IMG/VR virus record: IMGVR_UViG_2695420380_000015
Origin: a virus
Lineage: Duplodnaviria > Heunggongvirae > Uroviricota > Caudoviricetes
Direction: 5' to 3' (one strand)
Length of the DNA stretch: 39,317 nucleotides
The notes under the pieces were generated by a model. It did no database searches and was not told the DNA's origin. It saw only the letters and a program-made list of their open reading frames with translations. Shown one piece after another: positions 971 through 37,091 of this stretch. Position 1 is the first letter of the stretch; each line of letters starts with the position of its first letter. The position numbers and the translations under genes are program-made.

Positions 971-2934
971 ATGTATGTCATTGCAAAAGAACTGATTGGC
1001 GCGCCCGGAATGCCTGCTACAACAAAAGGTATTCGCCAGGCATTACAACGTTACGTACAAGGGAAAAGCTGTTGTTCCCGTCGTCGCTCAGGCTCTAAAG
1101 CAACTGAATACAGCATCGACTGTTTACCTGAAGTGACGCAGCAGGCATTACGTGAACGCTACGCCCTGCAACTGATGACGCAAAAAGCCGATGAATCACC
1201 GGCTCCGGTGGTGACAAAGGCCAGACGCTCACCTGCCGTGGTTGATGCGGTGGAGGCATATCGCGGATCACCCCAACTGATGGTCGAACGCCTCAATGCC
1301 CTGACTGAAAACCAACGTAAAGTGGCAGAGGCACGAATAGCGATCGTCAGCGAGGTGCTGAAAATCGCGCAACAACCCGGCTTTAGTTGCGCTAAGGCTA
1401 TCCGGTTCCTCGTTAACAGCCTGGCACGATCACAACTGGACGAGCGCATTGTGGCAATGGTTGAGACGGCGAACGCCAAAAAGGGAAACAGCCGCGCGTT
1501 GAGTGAAATCACGCTGAAACGCTGGATTGCGGCCTTTAACAAGGCACAGAACGCCGCTGAACGCCTGCTTTTACTGGCACCGGGTAAACGCCAGGAAATA
1601 AAAGCCGAAGATATTAACTGGCTGCCCGAATTTCTGGCGCAGTATCGCCAGTCAAACGGCCGACCAATGACCGAGGCTTACGAGGATTTTGTTGCTGAAT
1701 GGCAGCACCGGCACGCTGATGAGCCTTATATGCTCGATATCATGCCCTCTTATGACACCATTCGCCGCGCAATGAAGAAACTGCCGGAAGTGGTGAAACA
1801 AAAAGGCCGGGTAACTGGCAGTGAATACCGTCAGCTTGAGGGATTCACGCGCCGCGACTGGTCCAGAATGCCGGTGAATTATGTCTGGATTGGTGACGGT
1901 CACGGCATGAAGCTGAAATGCGCGCACCCGGTTCACGGGCGGCCATTCGCACCGGAAGTGACCTTTGTTATCGACGGTGGCACGCGCTTTGTGGTGGGCT
2001 GGAGCCTTGACCTGGCTGAAAATGTTTTCGCCGTAGCCGGTGCCATACAGCACGGTATTCGCCATCATGGCAAACCGTTTCTGTATTACTCGGATAATGG
2101 CTCCGGGGAAACCGCCGACGTCCTGGATAAGGAGATTGTGGGGATACTGCCACGACTGGGGATTAATCACCCGACAGGGATTGCCGGTAATCCGCAGGGA
2201 CGGGGCATTATCGAACGGCTTAACCGCACATTACCGATGCGCATAGCCCGTAAATACCGCACCTATTTCGGGAAAGGAGCAGATCGCGAGACGTTACGTA
2301 AAACCAACCGCGATTTACGCTCGGCATTCAGTGCCCTGCAACAGGGCAAACGGCTGAACGCCCGGCAGCAGTCAGCGATGCGTGATTTACCGTCCTGGTC
2401 TGAACTGATTGATGCCATTCGTGACGGTGTTGAGTGGTACAACAACCGGCCGCACGATGAATTACCCATGAAGCCGAACGGTAAACATTACAGCCCGGCG
2501 GAGTTCAGAAAAAAACGCCTGGCGGAAGAGGACACGGAAATTGAATGGCTGTCCGATGTTGAACTGCGGGATATGTTCCGGCCGATGGTGGAGCGCCCTG
2601 TAAGACGCTGTGAAATACGCTGGCTGAATAATATTTACTACGCGCCCGAGCTGCGTGACGAGCATGGCCGTAAGGTACTTATCAGCTATGACATTCATGA
2701 TGCCGAACGAATTACCGTGCGCCGCCCGGATGGCAGCGTGATTTGCGAGGCGGTATGGGACGGCAATAAACGCGAAGCCTTCCCTGTCAGCGCGGAATAC
2801 TACAAACAGCAGCAGCGCCTTAAAGGCATGCGTAAACGCGCAGAGGAAAAAATCCGTGATGCCGAGGATGAGGTTGTCAACGTGCTGGAGCACAAGCCGC
2901 AGGAGCCCTGGCTGGAAAACATATACCGCCCTGT
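971..2934 (+). CDS. A: DDE transposase, MuA-like; 3' end lost in the N run, so the track's 762-aa read-through to 3259 is not trustworthy
   Basis: Long ORF starting 1 nt after ner. Contains a DDE-type core (WIGDGHG..., YYSDNGSGET..., IIERLNRTL) and sits ner-A-B as in Mu. Confidence 0.85.
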
Positions 2935-3238
2935 NNNNNNNNNNNNNNNNNNNNNNNNNNNNNNNNNNNNNNNNNNNNNNNNNNNNNNNNNNNNNNNNNN
3001 NNNNNNNNNNNNNNNNNNNNNNNNNNNNNNNNNNNNNNNNNNNNNNNNNNNNNNNNNNNNNNNNNNNNNNNNNNNNNNNNNNNNNNNNNNNNNNNNNNNN
3101 NNNNNNNNNNNNNNNNNNNNNNNNNNNNNNNNNNNNNNNNNNNNNNNNNNNNNNNNNNNNNNNNNNNNNNNNNNNNNNNNNNNNNNNNNNNNNNNNNNNN
3201 NNNNNNNNNNNNNNNNNNNNNNNNNNNNNNNNNNNNNN
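2935..3238. other. Run of N (masked or unsequenced) covering the transposase 3' end and the B 5' end
   Basis: 304 consecutive n characters. Confidence 0.99.
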
Positions 3239-4163
3239 TTATTGATGGCGGCGTACTGACGCAGTATGCCATCGCCAGAGAGGCGGGAATTTCCGACGGC
3301 ACATTATCGGCTTTCCGTAAGGGAAAATATAAAGGCGATAACGCTGCTGTGGCTGNNNNNNNNNNNNNNNNNNNNNNNNNNNNNNNNNTTCCCTGCGCTC
3401 CTGGTATGAGAACTGGAATAAACAAAGCGCACTGCCGGAACCGCCGCAGTTTGTGGAAACTCAGACAGTCCAGGAGCTGCGCGCACTGTTTCAGGCGGTT
3501 CGCCTGATGGGCTGTATTAACGTTATTGTGGGCGTACCGGGTGTGGGTAAAACGGCCACTGCCCGTAATTACTGCCAGGAGCAACCAAACACCTGGATGA
3601 TCACCCTGTCACCCGCGCACTCCAGCGTCACGGAGTGTCTGCTGGAGCTGGCCGATGCGCTGGGGATTGATTACACCCGCGCGAACAAAGGGGCATTATC
3701 CCGCGCCATCCGCCGTCGCCTGATGGGAACGCGTGGACTGGTGATTGTGGATGAGGCGGATCATCTTGGTATTGACGGTCTGGAGCAACTCCGGGCAATT
3801 CAGGACGCCACGGGGATCGGGATGGTGCTTATTGGTAACCCGCGCGGATTGTTTAAAGGTGGACGCCGCGCCTTTGATGATTTATCGCGCCTGTTCAGCC
3901 GTCTTGCCCGTACAAAACAACTTCGCAAGGCCAAAAAGGCGGATGTGCTGGCCATTGCCATGGCGTGGGGGATCAGTGGTGAGGCCGAGCTGGCCGTCAT
4001 GCAGGCTATCGCTGAAAAGCCGGGAGCGTTACGCGTTCTGACACATACGCTTAACCAGGCGTGGCTCACCGCCAGCGGTGAAGGCGCGGCGCTGACAGAA
4101 AAACATATTAATGCGGCCTTTAAAGAGGTTTATACCAACCCTGAATTACTCTCACAGGTGTGA
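3239..4163 (+). CDS. B: MuB-like AAA+ ATPase / transposition target-capture protein; true start is inside the N run, and the gene also crosses the 33-nt N run at 3356-3388
   Basis: Frame-0 reading from 3240 gives an HTH-like N-terminus (QYAIAREAGISDGTLSAFRKGKYKGDN). Walker A GVPGVGKT at 3531-3554. Stop at 4161-4163. Follows A as in Mu. Confidence 0.85.
3356..3388. other. Run of N inside the B gene
   Basis: 33 consecutive n characters. Confidence 0.99.
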
Positions 4164-6689: not shown

Positions 6690-7223
6690 ATGATTGATGC
6701 AAAAGTGCTTGAAGGGGTTAAAAACTGGCTGAGTATTTACGGGCGTCTGACCTGCGGCGTACTGGCTGAAAAAATGAATATGCCGCCATCCTCCATGGTT
6801 TATTTTCTGCGTGATGCGGTTGATGCCGGGGTGCTGACGGAATGTAACGGTTTTTATGATATTCCGCGTCCCCGCCCGGTGCAGCCGATTCGTCGCAAAT
6901 GCAGACAGGAATCTGCGGCTGATGATGTTCAGTGGTGCAGCTTCAGAAAATCCCTGCCATGGATTGAGGGGCATGATATTCCGTCGATGGCGTGGGAATT
7001 TGCTCAGGGCGTTCTGACCTGTGAAACCGTTTATGTGGTGGCTGAAGTTGATGAGCAGGCCATGAAAGAAGGCGTGCCCCAGTTTGTGATGGCGTATATC
7101 GACATTCGCCTGGGTGTCATCATCTGCGGTTTAAGCGGCTGGAATATCACCGCGCGTGTTCTGCGCTACCTGATTGTTGACCGGACAGCAGCGCCTGCCG
7201 GGATATCTGCGGAGGTGGCGTAA
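6690..7223 (+). CDS. Hypothetical protein (177 aa)
   Basis: Tightly packed ORF, 4 nt after the previous stop. Confidence 0.5.
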   Translation: MIDAKVLEGVKNWLSIYGRLTCGVLAEKMNMPPSSMVYFLRDAVDAGVLTECNGFYDIPRPRPVQPIRRKCRQESAADDVQWCSFRKSLPWIEGHDIPSMAWEFAQGVLTCETVYVVAEVDEQAMKEGVPQFVMAYIDIRLGVIICGLSGWNITARVLRYLIVDRTAAPAGISAEVA

Positions 7224-7738
7224 TGTTCTTTAAAACATCAAACCCTTCCGCGCTGGCTGCGTGGCAAAAATACCAGCAGGACTGCCAGACGGTAAAAGAT
7301 GAGGCGAAACGCCTTGAGGCCGTGCTGAATGTTGCGTGCCGGTCGGTATTTGAATTCAGTATCAGTGGTTTTTGTTTTAAGGGACTGCGTTTTACGGAGG
7401 ACAAATATCCTTTTCATCGCGACTTATGGCGAAAACCGACTGCGTCGAATGGCTGGAGCTGCACACCGCGCACATCACGTATCCCTAAAGCCCTGCGTGT
7501 TGCCTCTGATGAACTGAACAGTCTGTGGCGTGAATATTCGCCCGTCACGTATGCCAGAACCGATGCCCTGTTGTTCTGGCTGGGTATTGACTTCTCAGCA
7601 ATATTGTATGGTCCCGTGAACTGGTTCTGCGTTGACAATGTGATTTATCTTCAGTGCGAAGATGATTCCGCAAAACGGAAAATGACCGAAATTCTGTCTG
7701 ATGAGTTTTATGCTGCCGAAAAGCGAGTCAGGGGGTGA
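7223..7738 (+). CDS. Hypothetical protein (171 aa)
   Basis: Start overlaps the previous stop (operon-style coupling). Confidence 0.5.
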   Translation: MFFKTSNPSALAAWQKYQQDCQTVKDEAKRLEAVLNVACRSVFEFSISGFCFKGLRFTEDKYPFHRDLWRKPTASNGWSCTPRTSRIPKALRVASDELNSLWREYSPVTYARTDALLFWLGIDFSAILYGPVNWFCVDNVIYLQCEDDSAKRKMTEILSDEFYAAEKRVRG

Positions 7739-7741
7739 TGT

Positions 7742-8293
7742 ATGATGATTTTACAACACATGGGGCGAAAAGGTCGTACACCCGCTCATGTCCGCGCGTG
7801 GACACCTGAAGAAGATGCGCTACTGATTGCGCTTTATTCATCCACCCCGGTTAAGGATATTGCTGCCAGAATAAAAAGAACTGTCTGGGCTGTATATAAC
7901 CGGACTGGTGTATTGCGCAGTTCATACCCGGAGTTACTGAAATATAAACACCCAAGATTTACACCTGATGAAGATAAGTTTATTCGAAAAAATGCCAGAA
8001 CAATGACCTGCCAGCAAATGGGAGAATATCTCGGACGTAATAAAGATTCTGTCAGATGTCGGGCAGGAATGATTGGTGCTGGATTAACAAAGTGCGGAGA
8101 GTTACGCCCCGGCACGCGCATATCTGATGATGATGTACGTCTTATACGTGCGCTGCGTGATTCCGATTACCCACGCCGTCTGTCATTCCGGGAAATTGGC
8201 GAAAAGTTTGGAATATCTGAACATTCTGCTCACGCAGTTTATTACCGTCGCCGGACTGCCGAGGACGCTGTATTACGGGAGTTAACGCCATGA
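7742..8293 (+). CDS. Hypothetical DNA-binding protein with three tandem Myb/SANT-like HTH repeats
   Basis: Three internally repeated segments of about 45 aa, each with a W/F-T-P-(E/D)-E-D motif followed by helix-like basic stretches (RAWTPEEDALLIALY..., RFTPDEDKFIRKN..., RISDDDVRLIRAL...). Confidence 0.5.
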   Translation: MMILQHMGRKGRTPAHVRAWTPEEDALLIALYSSTPVKDIAARIKRTVWAVYNRTGVLRSSYPELLKYKHPRFTPDEDKFIRKNARTMTCQQMGEYLGRNKDSVRCRAGMIGAGLTKCGELRPGTRISDDDVRLIRALRDSDYPRRLSFREIGEKFGISEHSAHAVYYRRRTAEDAVLRELTP

Positions 8294-8619
8294 TAACGAC
8301 CTTATTTGTTGAATCAGATGAACCTCTTGTGTGTGCCGCCGGAATGCCGCTCTGTGGCGGAACGCTGACCGGTGTTTATTTCGGGGATTTACGCGGTTAT
8401 CCCTGGCATTCACTGAATGATGCTTTCCCACCTGATATGGAGGCTGTCGTGCTGATTGTTCAGTATGGTCACCGTCAGGAGCTGCGCATCGGCCATATGG
8501 GGTATGAAGGCTTTTTTGTTGATGAAGAAACCGGAGCCTGCCTTGAAGATGAAGACGGACAGGTGACGCACTGGTGTCATATTTCGGCTTTACCGGAATT
8601 ACGGGAGGTGAATGCGTGA
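8290..8619 (+). CDS. Hypothetical protein (109 aa)
   Basis: ATGA start/stop overlap with the upstream gene. Confidence 0.45.
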   Translation: MITTLFVESDEPLVCAAGMPLCGGTLTGVYFGDLRGYPWHSLNDAFPPDMEAVVLIVQYGHRQELRIGHMGYEGFFVDEETGACLEDEDGQVTHWCHISALPELREVNA

Positions 8620-8966
8620 GAAGTTATATTGATAATGAAAAGCTGGAGACAATAAGCGACTGTCTTAGCTTGCTGGCAAAAATCAAAGAAACTATTGAAG
8701 AGATTAAATTTCAGCTTGAATACGCACCATGTGGCGATGATGCATGGCGTAATGCTGCCAGAAAAGCACTGGCTGTCTTTCAGAAACAACGCCGGGCTGT
8801 TGAATACCGCCTTGCTGTATTGCGCCAGGAGGAAAAGGAAAGAAATATAAGACGTCATGAACGCGTTAATGATTTCCTTGTTCGTGAATTAAAAGAGCGC
8901 GTGCCGGAGTCGGTATTTTTTGAATGTGAGGCTATAGCCCGTAGCAAAGCACTGGAAACAGATTAA
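8613..8966 (+). CDS. Hypothetical coiled-coil protein (GTG start; track ORF 8574..8966)
   Basis: GTG at 8613 preceded by GGGAGG; AT-rich coding sequence; charged heptad-like composition. Confidence 0.4.
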   Translation, partial: CVRSYIDNEKLETISDCLSLLAKIKETIEEIKFQLEYAPCGDDAWRNAARKALAVFQKQRRAVEYRLAVLRQEEKERNIRRHERVNDFLVRELKERVPESVFFECEAIARSKALETD

Positions 8967-8981
8967 GCAGGCAGGTGAATA

Positions 8982-9290
8982 ATGAGTATTGAATTAAGAT
9001 CGTCTTATGAATATCGCAAAATCCTTATCGCCGGAGGCATGAAACCGGAAGATGCAGAGAAATTCGTTTCTTTTATGGATAAAGAATGTGACAAGCGGGA
9101 TATGCCAGAAATTATTATGGATGACATGATTCTGGATTCAGCCGTGGCGTTAAGTCCGTTATGGATTGTGCATACTCTTGCGGAAATAGCTAAAAGAAGT
9201 GACAAGCAGGCGGCTGTCGCCGCCCTGCGATTACTGGCTGAATTAAGTTGTTCAGTCAATCCCAATACGTTCTTTGACGAACCTGGTTAA
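8982..9290 (+). CDS. Hypothetical protein (102 aa), AT-rich
   Basis: ORF with an RBS; its last 39 nt overlap the 3' end of the convergent minus-strand gene. Confidence 0.4.
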   Translation: MSIELRSSYEYRKILIAGGMKPEDAEKFVSFMDKECDKRDMPEIIMDDMILDSAVALSPLWIVHTLAEIAKRSDKQAAVAALRLLAELSCSVNPNTFFDEPG

Positions 9291-9662
9291 CATTGATTTG
9301 GTAACTTCTTTAATTAGATCAAATGGTGCGTCTGTAAACTCCTTTTTGATTCTTTCAAGGATTGGTTTTTTTCTCAGGGCGTTAGCTAAATCATGCCCCT
9401 GCTGGGTAAGCATAATGGGCGTGTTTCTGAAACCAACGCCCAGAGAATGGAAAAAGAAACCAATATATTTGGGTGTTTCTGACTGCATATCACCATTAAC
9501 AATTGAGCCATTATCAGCGAGAAGCATAAGATGAAAAACTTTTTTATCCTTTTCCTCTCCTTCTGCCTCAGCCATGCCCAGATCCTGTAGTGTAAGGAAA
9601 GGTGTTTCAGCATCCTGAAAAGTTGTGAGAATACTTAATACTTCATCGTAATCTATTTTCAT
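9252..9662 (-). CDS. Hypothetical protein (136 aa) on the opposite strand inside the early operon; AT-rich moron-like insert
   Basis: Only sizeable minus-strand ORF in the early region; visibly AT-enriched codon usage; GC-rich dyad GGCGGC-N8-GCCGCC (about 9686-9705) upstream of its start. Confidence 0.5.
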   Translation of the reverse strand: MKIDYDEVLSILTTFQDAETPFLTLQDLGMAEAEGEEKDKKVFHLMLLADNGSIVNGDMQSETPKYIGFFFHSLGVGFRNTPIMLTQQGHDLANALRKKPILERIKKEFTDAPFDLIKEVTKSMLTRFVKERIGID

Positions 9663-9726
9663 ATCGATACCTTTAGTTTTATCCGGGCGGCGTTGCCATG
9701 CCGCCTGTTGTTACGGAGACACGATA

Positions 9727-10311
9727 ATGAATCGCGCTTCCCTGATTACCTTAATACATGTCGCAAAACGCGATCTACAGCTTGACCATGAGACCTACAC
9801 ATCCGTACTACTGGCAGCCACCGGCAAACCCAGTTGCCGGGATATGTCACCGGATGAGTTATCCCGCGTGCTGGATGTTTTCAAAAAACGCGGTTTTAAA
9901 GTGCGTCAGAAGCCGGTTAACCGGGCCTTAAAACCGGGGACGGTGACCGCCAAAATTCGCGCCATCTGGAAAGTGATGCACCGGCAGGGCTTTATCGCTG
10001 ATGGCGGGGNNNNNNNNNNNNNNNNNNNNNNNNNNNNNNNNNNNNNNNNNNNNNNNNNNNNNNNNNNNNNNNNNNNNNNNNNNNNNNNNNNNNNNNNNNN
10101 NNNNNNNNNNNNNNNNNNNNNNNNNNNNNNNNNNNNNNNNNNNNNNNNNNNNNNNNNNNNNNNNNNNNNNNNNNNNNNGGCCTCTGATGTGCTGGAGCGT
10201 CTCAAACGCTGGCACCGCCGCAAAATGCTGGATGTGCTGGGGATGTCAGCGCGTACAGTGATAAGTTATGAGCGCGTTTGCAGGCTGTATGAAAAATCAT
10301 TCCCCCGTTAA
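9727..10311 (+). CDS. GemA-like (Mu gp16-like) early regulatory protein; interior masked by N run 10010-10178
   Basis: Position immediately upstream of the Mor/C-family gene, and N-terminal sequence (MNRASLITLIHVAKRDLQLDHETY...) typical of Mu-like gp16/GemA proteins as remembered. Confidence 0.6.
   Translation: MNRASLITLIHVAKRDLQLDHETYTSVLLAATGKPSCRDMSPDELSRVLDVFKKRGFKVRQKPVNRALKPGTVTAKIRAIWKVMHRQGFIADGGXXXXXXXXXXXXXXXXXXXXXXXXXXXXXXXXXXXXXXXXXXXXXXXXXXXXXXXXXASDVLERLKRWHRRKMLDVLGMSARTVISYERVCRLYEKSFPR
10010..10178. other. Run of N inside the GemA-like gene
   Basis: 169 consecutive n characters. Confidence 0.99.
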
Positions 10312-10315
10312 CTCC

Positions 10316-10347
10316 AAATCCCGCCACAGCGCGGGATTTTTATTTTA
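10316..10347 (+). terminator. Rho-independent terminator: 9-bp perfect stem AAATCCCGC / GCGGGATTT, 6-nt loop, then TTTTTATTTT
   Basis: Read directly from the sequence, 5 nt after the GemA-like stop; a likely end of the early transcript. Confidence 0.6.
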
Positions 10348-10381
10348 AACTTGCCCTGTGTAATGATGACCGGAGGCGGGT

Positions 10382-10804
10382 ATGGCTGAAACACAGATGA
10401 GCATGTTTGGTGACAGCGAACAGCTGCACGCGCTGATTGACCGTCTGGATGATATTCCTGATGATGAGCTGAAAAAGAACTGGCCCGGCACGCTGCGGGA
10501 CCTGGTTGATGTGATCAGTGCTGAACTGCACCGTCAGGGGATTGAACCTGCTCAGGCGGGAATGCTTGCCCGTAAAGTTGCGGCCGCACAGGCCGGGTAC
10601 ATGGGCGGGCGTGGTTATTATCTCCCGGTCGGTGAATCCCTTTTCACCGAACTGCGCAATAATGAGATTTTTTCCCGCTGGAGCCAGGGCGAAAAAATTG
10701 AAACCCTGCGCCGCCACTACCAGATGTCAGAGACGCAGATTTACTCCGTTATCCGTAACCAGCGCCGCCTGCATCAGGAACGCACGCAGCCCCGGCTTTT
10801 CTGA
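10382..10804 (+). CDS. Mor/C-family transcriptional activator of middle/late genes
   Basis: 140-aa product with an acidic N-terminus and a C-terminal HTH-like region (RRHYQMSETQIYSVIRNQRR), matching Mor/C architecture; sits directly upstream of the lysis genes after a terminator. Confidence 0.75.
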   Translation: MAETQMSMFGDSEQLHALIDRLDDIPDDELKKNWPGTLRDLVDVISAELHRQGIEPAQAGMLARKVAAAQAGYMGGRGYYLPVGESLFTELRNNEIFSRWSQGEKIETLRRHYQMSETQIYSVIRNQRRLHQERTQPRLF

Positions 10805-34378: not shown

Positions 34379-34951
34379 ATGCTGATTGGGTATATCAGGG
34401 TGTCAACAAATGACCAGAATACGGCGCTACAAAGAAATGCGCTGGAATGTGCAGGATGTGAGCTGTTTTTCGAAGACAGAATAAGCGGTAAGACAAGGGA
34501 GCGTCCCGGACTTAAACGCGCATTAAAGCGACTCCGGCCAGGGGATACCCTGCTGGTCTGGAAACTGGATCGCCTTGGACGCAGTATGCAGCACCTTGTC
34601 CTTTTAACAGAAGAACTCCGGCAACGCGGCGTTAACTTCCGCAGCATTACGGACAATATTGATACATCCACTCCCATGGGACGTTTCTTTTTCCATATAA
34701 TGGGCGCGCTGGCGGAAATGGAGCGGGAACTCATTATTGAACGTACACGCGCGGGTCTTGCTGCTGCCCGTGCTCAGGGGCGTCATGGCGGCAGACCTCA
34801 GAAACTGACAGAGAAAGAGCGGGAGCAAATCGCCCGTTTGCTGGCTAATGGCGAGTCCCGTAAACAAATCGCACTGATATTTGATATTGGCCTTTCCACC
34901 CTTTATCGTTATTTTCCTGCCTCACCAGCTCCGTCACCAAAAGTACCGTGA
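34379..34951 (+). CDS. gin: Serine recombinase DNA invertase (Gin/Hin/Pin/Cin family)
   Basis: 190-aa product with MLIGYIRVSTNDQNT (catalytic Ser), LVWKLDRLGRSM, MGRFFFHIMGALAEMERELIIERT and a C-terminal HTH, as in Gin. Confidence 0.9.
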   Translation: MLIGYIRVSTNDQNTALQRNALECAGCELFFEDRISGKTRERPGLKRALKRLRPGDTLLVWKLDRLGRSMQHLVLLTEELRQRGVNFRSITDNIDTSTPMGRFFFHIMGALAEMERELIIERTRAGLAAARAQGRHGGRPQKLTEKEREQIARLLANGESRKQIALIFDIGLSTLYRYFPASPAPSPKVP

Positions 34952-35036: not shown

Positions 35037-37091
35037 ATGTCAGACTCCAAGTGGAAAATGCTCTCCGCCATGCCCGGAGAGTTTTCAGTCAAGGTTGCCG
35101 GTGGCACGGTGGCATTTATTGAAAGCCCTTTCCGCCCTTCGGGTAATAAAGGGGGGATCACCTTCGCAGACTGCGTGATCCGCTTCAGCACGAAAGAGCC
35201 ATTATGGGTAATGCCGGTATCCGGTAATCCCAGTGCAGAAATCACCAGTTCAGGCGTGACTGGCATCATTCCAATCACATCTGACGTGGCCGGAACGCTC
35301 ACGCCCTCCGACTGGAATGCACCGGATAACGCCGGGCCTTCCGGTAGCACGAATGGCAGCAGTTCAGAGCCGGAATATTACTTTGTTGTCATTCTCGCGG
35401 GTCAGTCAAATGGCATGGCCTACGGCGAGGGGCTGCCGTTACCGGATTCGTTTGACCGCCCGGACCCACGCATTAAGCAACTGGCACGCCGCAGTACGGT
35501 AACGCCCAACGGTACGTCGTGTACATACAACGACATCATTCCGGCAGACCACTGCCTGCATGATGTTCAGGATATGAGCGGGATAAACCACCCGAAAGCT
35601 GATCTGGCAAAAGGCCAGTACGGGACTGTCGGTCAGGGGTTGCATATTGCCAAAAAACTGCTTCCCTATATCCCACAGAATGCCGGGATACTTCTGGTGC
35701 CCTGTTGTCGTGGCGGGTCAGCATTCACCACTGGAGCCGACGGCTCATTCAGTGAGGCCAGCGGTGCTTCCGCTGATTCTTCACGCTGGGGGGCCGGTAA
35801 ACCTCTGTATCAGGACCTGGTAAGCCGCACCAAAGTCGCGCTGGCGAAAAACCCGAAAAACAAACTTCTGGCTGTGGTCTGGATGCAGGGAGAGGCAGAC
35901 CTTGCCTCAGGAAGCCAGCAGCATAATAGTTTATTCACGGCCATGGTTCAGCAGTTCAGAACTGACCTGGCTCCGCTTGCTGCGCAGTGCGTGAGTGGAA
36001 ATGCCACCACGGTGCCGTGGATTTGCGGTGATACCACGTATTACTGGAAAAACGCTGGCACCGATAAATATGAGGCAGTATACGGTGGCTACAAAGGCAA
36101 GGAAGCACAGAAAATTTTCTTTGTACCGTTCCTGACGGATGAGAATGGACAGAGCACGCCAACGAATGCTCCGGCGGAAGACCCGGATATTGTGGCTGTC
36201 GGGTATTACGGTGCAGCATCCCGAACCCAGGGCAGTTTTGTTTCGACACAGCGTGACAGCCATTTCAGCTCATGGGCACGCAGGGGCGTCATTTCAGACC
36301 GTCTGGCCTCAGCTATTATGCTCCATGCAGGGCGCACGGCTGAACTGATGCGCGGGCAGACCGTGACACCACCGGATGAGAAGCCGTCACCTGATACACC
36401 ATCAAAACCGTCCACGCCACCCGCAGACACCACGACGATGAGTACGCTATTTGCTTACCGGGCATCTGAGTCTGAAGGACGGTTGACACCACAGGGTTGG
36501 GCTGCCGGAGGTGGCAAGGCTCAAATCGTGGATGATGCCGGAGCCAGCGGGGGTAAGGCAATGAAACTGACCAAGGAAACAGGAAGAGCCCCCTGGTACC
36601 TTGAGCATGATGCTGGTAATGGTGCGGACCTGCTGGGTAAAGGTGGTCTTGTCAGTTGTCGTTTTAAACTCGATGGCGCGCTTACGGCTAATCAGTACGC
36701 ACTGGCGCTGTACTGGCCGGTTTCTGCCCTGCCGCAAGGGGTTACTCTGGAAGGAAATGCCGGTCATAACCTGCTGGCATCGTTCTACGTACAGAGCGAT
36801 GCCACAGACCTTAACGTGATGTATCACAAAGGAAACACGGCGCAGAACACGAAGCTGGGGTCATTCGGCGCATTTAATAACGAATGGCATACGCTGGGCT
36901 TCCGTTTTGCCGGTAACAACAGTATTGAGGTGACGCCGGTCATTGATGGTAAGGACGGGACACCATTCATGCTGTCGCAGTCTCCGGTCGGCACGTTTAC
37001 GGCAGACAAGTTGCGCGTGACCGATATCACTAAAAATGCGACTTACCCGGTACTGATTGACAGTATCGTGGTGGAAGTGAATAACGCGTAA
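35037..37091 (+). CDS. SASA-family (SGNH-like) O-acetylesterase resembling NanS / prophage NanS-p sialate O-acetylesterase, with extra N- and C-terminal domains
   Basis: 684-aa ORF. Core motifs YYFVVILAGQSNGMAYGEGLPLPD, GQYGTVGQGLHIAKKLLP, VPCCRGGSAFT, WMQGEADL resemble E. coli NanS (YjhS) as I remember it. Flanked by an about 120-aa N-terminal domain and an about 250-aa C-terminal domain. Confidence 0.7.
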   Translation: MSDSKWKMLSAMPGEFSVKVAGGTVAFIESPFRPSGNKGGITFADCVIRFSTKEPLWVMPVSGNPSAEITSSGVTGIIPITSDVAGTLTPSDWNAPDNAGPSGSTNGSSSEPEYYFVVILAGQSNGMAYGEGLPLPDSFDRPDPRIKQLARRSTVTPNGTSCTYNDIIPADHCLHDVQDMSGINHPKADLAKGQYGTVGQGLHIAKKLLPYIPQNAGILLVPCCRGGSAFTTGADGSFSEASGASADSSRWGAGKPLYQDLVSRTKVALAKNPKNKLLAVVWMQGEADLASGSQQHNSLFTAMVQQFRTDLAPLAAQCVSGNATTVPWICGDTTYYWKNAGTDKYEAVYGGYKGKEAQKIFFVPFLTDENGQSTPTNAPAEDPDIVAVGYYGAASRTQGSFVSTQRDSHFSSWARRGVISDRLASAIMLHAGRTAELMRGQTVTPPDEKPSPDTPSKPSTPPADTTTMSTLFAYRASESEGRLTPQGWAAGGGKAQIVDDAGASGGKAMKLTKETGRAPWYLEHDAGNGADLLGKGGLVSCRFKLDGALTANQYALALYWPVSALPQGVTLEGNAGHNLLASFYVQSDATDLNVMYHKGNTAQNTKLGSFGAFNNEWHTLGFRFAGNNSIEVTPVIDGKDGTPFMLSQSPVGTFTADKLRVTDITKNATYPVLIDSIVVEVNNA

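Follow-up and report, generated by a model that had tools for sequence, protein, structure and literature searches.

A mosaic AT-rich slot before gemA in an Escherichia coli/Shigella Mu-like prophage carries a conserved convergent pair of p102-like and DUF2513 genes

We analysed an AT-rich stretch (positions 8613-9662) of the virus record IMGVR_UViG_2695420380_000015, which lies directly upstream of gemA in the early region of a Mu-like prophage and contains three open reading frames (ORFs), the last of which is located on the minus strand and encodes a protein of the DUF2513 family. The complete stretch of DNA under analysis, which comprises 39,317 nucleotides (nt) and will be referred to as the window, represents an entire Mu-like prophage of E. 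coli/Shigella, with the c repressor at one end and mom at the other. Comparison with related prophages showed that the DNA separating the Myb-like gene from gemA is mosaic; this slot exists in E. coli in at least four alleles, all of them AT-rich. The explanation we favour, with a probability of about one half, is a flexible accessory slot in the semi-essential early region that here holds a convergent p102-like/DUF2513 module, the DUF2513 protein being an accessory binder expressed independently of the lytic operon. The region as such is an ordinary accessory slot; what goes beyond the ordinary is the conserved antisense pairing of DUF2513 with p102-like genes and a conserved hairpin preceding gemA.

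An earlier reading of this DNA made from the letters alone (the sequence-only reading) had described the three ORFs as an AT-rich island, with the minus-strand gene overlapping the 3′ end of its plus-strand neighbour. This observation was confirmed, and its interpretation as an inserted moron is partly supported. E. coli JKHS016 contains this stretch with 100% identity, and RefSeq annotates the three genes there with the same boundaries and labels the minus-strand gene "DUF2513 domain-containing protein" (Table 1). The first ORF is present as described, only its proposed start at 8613 (117 amino acids, aa) is one codon off; the most likely start is a GTG at 8616, which yields 116 aa, overlaps the upstream stop codon in the sequence GTGA and is preceded by GGAGG. 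Homologues of this 116-aa protein with ~41% identity are found in the early-left regions of lambdoid phages. The atypical base composition was likewise verified: the G+C content of 8613-9662 is 41.3% compared to 49.8% for the early region and 53.8% for the whole window, and no other 1050-nt segment of the 39.3 kb has a lower value. Among ORFs of at least 110 aa, the prophage has no plausible minus-strand gene other than the 136-aa gene, once the invertible tail-fibre segment and the c repressor gene are set aside. Searches of Pfam, NCBIfam, PADLOC and PDB sequences returned nothing usable as a known function for the three proteins.

In E. coli, the slot occurs in at least four forms. Allele i is that of the window, with the 116-aa and 102-aa genes on the plus strand followed by the DUF2513 gene on the minus strand. 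Allele ii, which is common and Sp18-like, keeps the 116-aa gene and a gene of ~110 aa and continues with genes for 65 and 98 aa, both on the plus strand. Allele iii, represented by Sp18 of strain Sakai, is devoid of the 109-aa and 116-aa genes, and allele iv, found in strain 600029, carries an unrelated convergent pair consisting of p95 on the plus strand and p79 on the minus strand. The region thus differs between related prophages, in support of the sequence-only reading, and the DUF2513 allele (whole stretch) is present in only 6 of 232 matching E. coli genomes. The exact 136-aa protein is indexed in 4252 blocks of an assembly collection, one source of which names Shigella sonnei.

BLAST breakpoints between these alleles were located at ~8296, 8605, 8968, 9226 and 9708/9754. 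Against the Sp18-like allele, the difference is confined to 9227-9753, which covers the tail of the p102 gene (the final 21 codons of which go with the swapped module), the DUF2513 gene, the hairpin and nine codons at the start of gemA, whereas the 116-aa and 102-aa genes are common to both alleles with 89-96% DNA identity. Against the 600029 allele, the entire block 8606-9707 is swapped. The island of the sequence-only reading coincides almost exactly with the block swapped against 600029 but not with that against the Sp18-like allele, and the notion of a single three-gene insert does not hold. Both plus-strand genes (116 and 102 aa) are early genes of the ordinary kind, swapped or shared independently. 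The G+C content of the slot is 39-46% whatever its cargo, compared to 50-54% in the flanks, and this holds in phages down to 45% protein identity. Since the AT-richness persists across different cargos and diverged phages, low G+C is a standing property of the slot and no mark of recent arrival.

The pair p95/p79 of allele iv is not restricted to strain 600029. It was also detected in L075, L076, L079-L081, L094, L097, L101, L102, L105, L106, L142 and L143, with p79 oriented leftward in every case and p79 identities between loci down to 37-53%. No homology was found between this pair and the p102-like/DUF2513 pair.

In its position between the gam and gp11-12 homologues and gemA-mor, the slot resembles the semi-essential early region and gem operon of Mu, and like that region it is dispensable and variable. 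It differs from Mu in its content, as no homologue of the 116-aa, 102-aa or 136-aa protein was found in Mu by tblastn. Mu itself is not known to carry a leftward gene in its early region at this place.

The p102-like/DUF2513 arrangement is not limited to the prophage studied here. All homologues of 45-54% identity belong to Mu-like phages (IMG/VR contigs, Logan contigs, Citrobacter braakii, Edwardsiella anguillarum and Pantoea rodasii) and show the same order, a rightward p102-like gene facing a leftward DUF2513 gene, followed by rightward gemA and mor. Altogether the arrangement was found in about nine diverged Mu-like lineages, in which the DUF2513 proteins share 31-54% and the GemA proteins 45-67% identity. 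The Klebsiella phage Kp4866-3, which encodes a DUF2513 homologue of 31% identity together with MuB-like, GemA and Mor proteins, has the same layout, and in Kluyvera (30-32% identity) the convergent pair is located just downstream of gemA. DUF2513 accordingly adjoins gemA in every Mu-like locus, upstream in most and downstream in the Kluyvera type. An orientation census of 80 GemA-bearing viral contigs yielded DUF2513 in 16, antisense to gemA in all 16, with a convergent p102-like partner in each of the 15 that are not truncated. A p102-like gene without DUF2513 was present in 11 contigs and neither gene in 53, and the p95/p79 pair was detected in at least 13 of the 80. The synteny of p102-like and DUF2513 genes across lineages of 31-54% identity argues for an old accessory module and not a recent moron, and a fresh insertion is contradicted by the recurrence of the order p102-like, DUF2513, gemA in Citrobacter, Edwardsiella, Pantoea, Kluyvera, Klebsiella and IMG/VR contigs. 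The overlap between the two genes is 39 nt in both homologues in which it was checked exactly (L016 and L017; 49-50% identity). In Kp4866-3, an ORF of 149 aa without family match (L005:3925-4374) lies exactly antisense to the DUF2513 homologue and is closely abutted by its neighbours; it is probably a spurious shadow ORF, which could mislead automatic annotation.

The minus-strand gene is real, is under purifying selection and encodes a stand-alone protein of ~136 aa. Its product matches the PHROG 585 profile over the full length (E 7.1e-18; residues 1-134 on positions 1-126 of 128), and the homologues of Kluyvera and Klebsiella match this PHROG as well. A profile search of 1.84 billion representatives retrieved 256 cluster representatives at E≤1e-3, nearly all of them stand-alone proteins of 130-146 aa, and the ratio of nonsynonymous to synonymous substitution rates (dN/dS) was 0.1-0.47 among close pairs of DUF2513 relatives. 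With its full-length PHROG 585 match, its stand-alone size and its RefSeq name, the protein resembles the typical members of PF10711/PHROG 585. It differs from them in remaining below the Pfam gathering threshold for PF10711 (23.6 bits compared to 29.6 bits; E 6.6e-5, profile 1-96 of 100) and in a substitution at position 84 that is discussed below. PF10711 itself is matched by 69 of 91 aligned relatives (E≤0.01), and near-invariant positions of the family are H44, G68, R84 and G89, together with the motif RLTxxGHDFA. DUF2513 is assigned to the Pfam helix-turn-helix clan CL0123 (supplement of PMC13092281).

Structure prediction, proposed earlier as a check, was carried out for the 136-aa protein. 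An AlphaFold2 run with an alignment of three sequences produced a weak model with a predicted local distance difference test (pLDDT) score of 68.8 and was replaced by a run with 91 sequences, for which the pLDDT was 97.1. The model comprises helices at residues 5-17 and 35-50, a four-stranded wing region and helices at 87-96, 99-108 and 114-133. The protein is thus predicted to consist of a winged-helix core with N- and C-terminal helices, an architecture resembling that of the MarR, PadR and TubR families, and likewise that of HxlR proteins. The LTxxG turn following the wing is presumably a MarR-like motif. Best Foldseek matches in the PDB were almost all MarR-type regulators, and these matches were weak (E 0.01-0.2, template modelling (TM) score ~0.4). 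At the sequence level, no Pfam match to MarR-type models or to those of the PadR, HxlR and TubR types was obtained at E≤0.1, and a PDB profile search returned MarR at E 0.24. A fold search of BFVD yielded uncharacterised viral proteins only.

Outside the Mu-like phages, DUF2513 appears as single-gene cargo. Single-gene cassettes flanked by attC-like repeats were found in two Vibrio chromosomal integron arrays, in one of which two cassettes lie within 3 kb (Table 1). In a lambdoid phage of Klebsiella, a DUF2513 gene is located between the lysis genes and terminase. In a metagenome-assembled genome of Thiopseudomonas (L060:1806-8730), the gene lies between a type I hsdR gene, a gene for a YgjP-like metallopeptidase and one for a 725-aa PDC-S06 protein, an AAA_13/PrrC-like candidate defence gene. 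In Salinimonas it adjoins a Tn3 transposase, and in Alcanivorax and Sulfurimonas nearby genes match PADLOC candidate models. No conserved neighbours were found for these distant members (29-38% identity), and the lack of common neighbours together with the single-gene contexts indicates that DUF2513 works alone and travels as cargo.

The spacer of 64 bp between the DUF2513 gene and gemA contains a GC-rich hairpin with a stem of 10 bp (9684-9693/9698-9707), which on the strand of the early operon has the form of an intrinsic terminator. Its calculated folding energy is ~-17 kcal/mol, with a z-score of only -1.6 relative to shuffled sequences. The hairpin of the window corresponds, in weakened form, to a conserved element consisting of GGCGGTG, 4-8 nt, CACCGCC, a T-run, GGAGG, ~6 nt and the gemA ATG. 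Besides the window (9684-9712), the element was located in L065 (1696-1726), L042, L017, L093, L094, L105, L142 and L143. It is present in all nine loci inspected that carry p79 on the minus strand, including those with p79 at 37-53% identity, and in one class of loci with DUF2513 on the minus strand; it is absent with plus-strand cargo and from those DUF2513 loci in which the spacer is only 30 bp. In every locus in which the conserved element was found, the gene in front of gemA lies on the minus strand. The sequence-only reading had assigned the minus-strand gene a GC dyad of its own; the hairpin exists, but it is shaped like a terminator of the plus strand and also accompanies p79 cargo. 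The dyad was also considered as an operator of DUF2513 and rejected, as many DUF2513 loci are without it and p79 loci share it. Its occurrence with the unrelated p79 cargo argues against a DUF2513-specific operator.

According to the explanation we favour, the forward p102-like gene forms part of the early (lytic) operon, with the backward DUF2513 gene overlapping its end by 39 nt. As DUF2513 is antisense in every Mu-like lineage that has it, and as leftward genes are otherwise limited in these phages to the repressor and the invertible segment, its transcription in the prophage state, independently of the early promoter Pe, appears most likely. All lytic genes run rightward, so that the antisense orientation would be the only route to expression independent of that promoter. 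Upon induction, convergent early transcription would shut the DUF2513 gene off. The DUF2513 protein is probably a small dimer that works on its own, binds nucleic acid or protein and may confer an accessory trait on the lysogen or the phage; candidate traits are the exclusion of other mobile elements, immunity to them and an influence on gene expression.

Several observations weigh against this explanation. A consensus scan detected no sigma-70-like promoter upstream of the minus-strand gene, where the best position weight matrix score was 4.2 compared to a background median of 5.0, and no minus-strand terminator-like site was found in 8200-10400, the gene running into the 102-aa gene. In many DUF2513 relatives the spacer to gemA is moreover only 30 bp; with no detectable promoter and such short spacers, independent expression is deduced from orientation alone. 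The DUF2513 family is acidic (median net charge -5), and the putative recognition helix (helix 3) is hydrophobic and acidic instead of basic, which sets these proteins apart from the MarR, PadR, HxlR and TubR regulators and means that DNA binding is not assured. Position 84 (codon 9411-9413), which belongs to the RLT motif after the wing, is Arg in 88 of 91 family members but Met in the protein of the window and in the Citrobacter braakii homologue; judged from the alignment, Met84 is a lineage-specific change at the most conserved basic residue of the family. The deep co-divergence of DUF2513 with GemA and its unvarying position beside gemA are equally compatible with a role intrinsic to the phage and with one as cargo. 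Regarding defence, to which the island had been tentatively linked, neither the 136-aa nor the 116-aa protein matched a PADLOC-DB 2.0 defence model at E≤1, and the 102-aa protein matched only PDC-S72 (E 0.068). A literature search with the family name and the RefSeq accession retrieved no paper on the function of DUF2513; the family is absent from the supplement of an integron-defence preprint and appears in the DefensePredictor supplement only in a CasR-like HHpred row.

A second explanation, clearly less probable than an accessory binder, is that the DUF2513 protein regulates the gemA-mor switch locally, as a MarR-like repressor or autoregulator encoded divergently from gemA and binding near the gemA start. 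Such a regulator would tune the onset of middle and late transcription, or else the expression of gem in the prophage state. The position beside gemA in every Mu-like locus, a divergence roughly in step with that of GemA and the predicted MarR-like fold are in agreement with this proposal, and MarR regulators are classically encoded pointing away from their targets. Besides, Mu gem was reported to be active even in lysogens (PMC3820752). On the other hand, the family occurs without gemA in integron cassettes, in the lambdoid phage and in the restriction-modification (R-M) island, and in most E. coli relatives unrelated genes take the place of DUF2513. A common operator is also lacking, as the spacers fall into three unrelated classes, one of only 30 bp. 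In comparison with a MarR-type operator, the GC palindrome at 9684-9707 is absent from this 30-bp class and accompanies the unrelated p79 cargo. The acidic protein, its non-basic helix 3 and the loss of Arg84 in the prophage studied speak against a local regulator as well.

Less probable still, and put forward tentatively, is that the slot may hold alternative two-gene modules acting on lysogeny versus lysis. A leftward effector expressed in the prophage state (DUF2513 or p79), for instance for exclusion or defence, would be neutralised by a rightward partner induced in the lytic cycle (p102-like or p95), the 3′ overlap would give mutual antisense control, and the hairpin would insulate the unit. 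The convergent overlapping partner in 15 of 15 untruncated DUF2513 loci of Mu-like phages is consistent with such a switch, as are the swapping of the p102 tail along with DUF2513, the position of the pair beyond gemA in the Kluyvera type, which looks like a joint relocation, and the same architecture of the unrelated p95/p79 pair in the same slot of at least 13 of 80 loci. There is also a documented case in a transposable phage: in the Pseudomonas Mu-like phage Fc02, olg1/olg2 and gene 10 are overlapping exclusion genes on opposite strands, one being transcribed in lysogens, the other as part of the lytic operon (PMC9936078). Fc02 and the DUF2513 locus have in common the transposable phage background, the opposite-strand overlap and, as proposed for DUF2513, the accessory role. 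However, the Fc02 genes are located beside the repressor gene and ner and not beside gemA, their overlap is more extensive and they show no sequence relationship to the pair described here; furthermore, expression and phenotype were measured for Fc02, whereas the DUF2513 locus is known here from its sequence. A two-gene switch is further weakened by the 11 of 80 loci with a p102-like gene but no DUF2513, by the occurrence of DUF2513 without p102-like genes outside the Mu-like phages and by the lack of homology between the two pairs, and the two genes may be adjacent only because a hotspot of recombination lies where a backbone gene ends. If true, however, it would represent a prophage accessory or defence function with built-in self-release and the first function for DUF2513.

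The comparative data largely refute the original idea of a three-gene moron island, taken as a recent acquisition with a defence or anti-defence function, which we consider improbable. It would account for the lowest G+C content in the window, for the replacement of the whole block 8606-9707 in the 600029 allele and for the defence candidates near some distant DUF2513 members. The three genes nevertheless assort independently among the alleles, the p102/DUF2513 pair is syntenic in lineages of 31-54% identity, and low G+C in all of those lineages removes it as a sign of recency; in addition, neither a promoter nor a terminator nor a PADLOC match was detected. Low-GC regions of genomic plasticity are established in Pseudomonas Mu-like phages (PMC4378225), and with these regions and the lambdoid morons the slot shares a fixed position in the left arm, alternative cargo, a low-GC valley and patchily distributed genes. 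In contrast to them, the DUF2513 gene has no recognisable promoter or terminator, overlaps its neighbour and is deeply conserved instead of sporadic. As a moron locus, the stretch therefore qualifies by its odd composition, patchy presence and occurrence as single-gene cargo elsewhere but not by a promoter or terminator of its own. Finally, although long antisense ORFs do occur, as opposite the DUF2513 homologue of Kp4866-3, a chance minus-strand ORF is excluded by the family, model and selection evidence (PHROG 585 at E 7e-18, 256 clusters, pLDDT 97, dN/dS <1) and by the RefSeq annotation.

The further gene content of the window is that of a Mu-like phage. Downstream of the transposase gene follow the genes for Gam, gp11-like and gp12-like proteins, the Myb-like gene, gemA, mor and the lysis genes. 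Head and tail functions are encoded next, together with a tail-fibre segment that is invertible and has a Gin-type resolvase, and mom is the last gene. The window contains 506 N-masked bases (from ~2935 onward), including the run inside gemA, and the full gemA sequence was taken from the identical locus of E. coli JKHS016.

Table 1: Coordinates of features in the window and of related loci in other sequences.
Feature	Position	Strand	Remarks
Repressor-like ORF	1-657	leftward	
Transposase	971-3259		
116-aa helical/coiled-coil early gene	8616-8966	+	PHROG 6158; in some slot alleles only
102-aa p102-like early gene	8982-9290	+	PHROG 1988; motifs LIAGG and DKxAAVAAL
Antisense overlap of the 3′ ends of the 102-aa and 136-aa genes	9252-9290		39 nt
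136-aa DUF2513 gene	9252-9662	-	PHROG 585; predicted winged helix and C-terminal helices; acidic; stand-alone
GC hairpin followed by TTGTT	9684-9712	+	Before the gemA ribosome-binding site (GGAG at 9715-9718)
gemA	9727-10311	+	gp16 family, PHROG 286; ATG at 9727; partly N-masked (~10010-10178)
Terminator-like hairpin with T-run	10316-10339	+	Canonical form; gemA/mor intergenic region
mor	10382-10804	+	Activator of middle transcription
Gin-type invertase	34379-34951		
684-aa gene	35037-37091		SASA-type carbohydrate esterase domain and DUF6645; between invertase and mom
mom	38385 to window end		
p95/p79 convergent pair, same slot	L065:1161-1668		E. coli 600029; p95 on +, PHROG 6075; p79 on -, PHROG 32893
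DUF2513 integron cassettes, Vibrio qingdaonensis	L050:4366-5004, 7145-7755		Two within 3 kb
DUF2513 integron cassette, Vibrio aquaticus	L059:3538-4166		

Between gemA and mor, a strong terminator-like hairpin was observed, whose arms AAATCCCGC...GCGGGATTT are followed by a T-run. If this hairpin is functional, mor is not simply cotranscribed with gemA. At the other end of the prophage, the 684-aa gene is likely another cargo gene, the product of which possibly modifies surface sugars. Near this gene, at ~37.4-38.9 kb, the G+C content is ~42%, nearly as low as in the region studied here.

By this analysis, an apparently foreign three-gene island becomes a mosaic slot with defined breakpoints, which is useful for annotation. 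DUF2513/PHROG 585 is singled out as a mobile single-gene cargo of Mu-like and lambdoid phages, integron cassettes and an R-M island. Should DUF2513 prove to have an exclusion, defence or regulatory function, this would explain a feature that recurs in the common Mu-like prophages of E. coli, Shigella and other enterobacteria.

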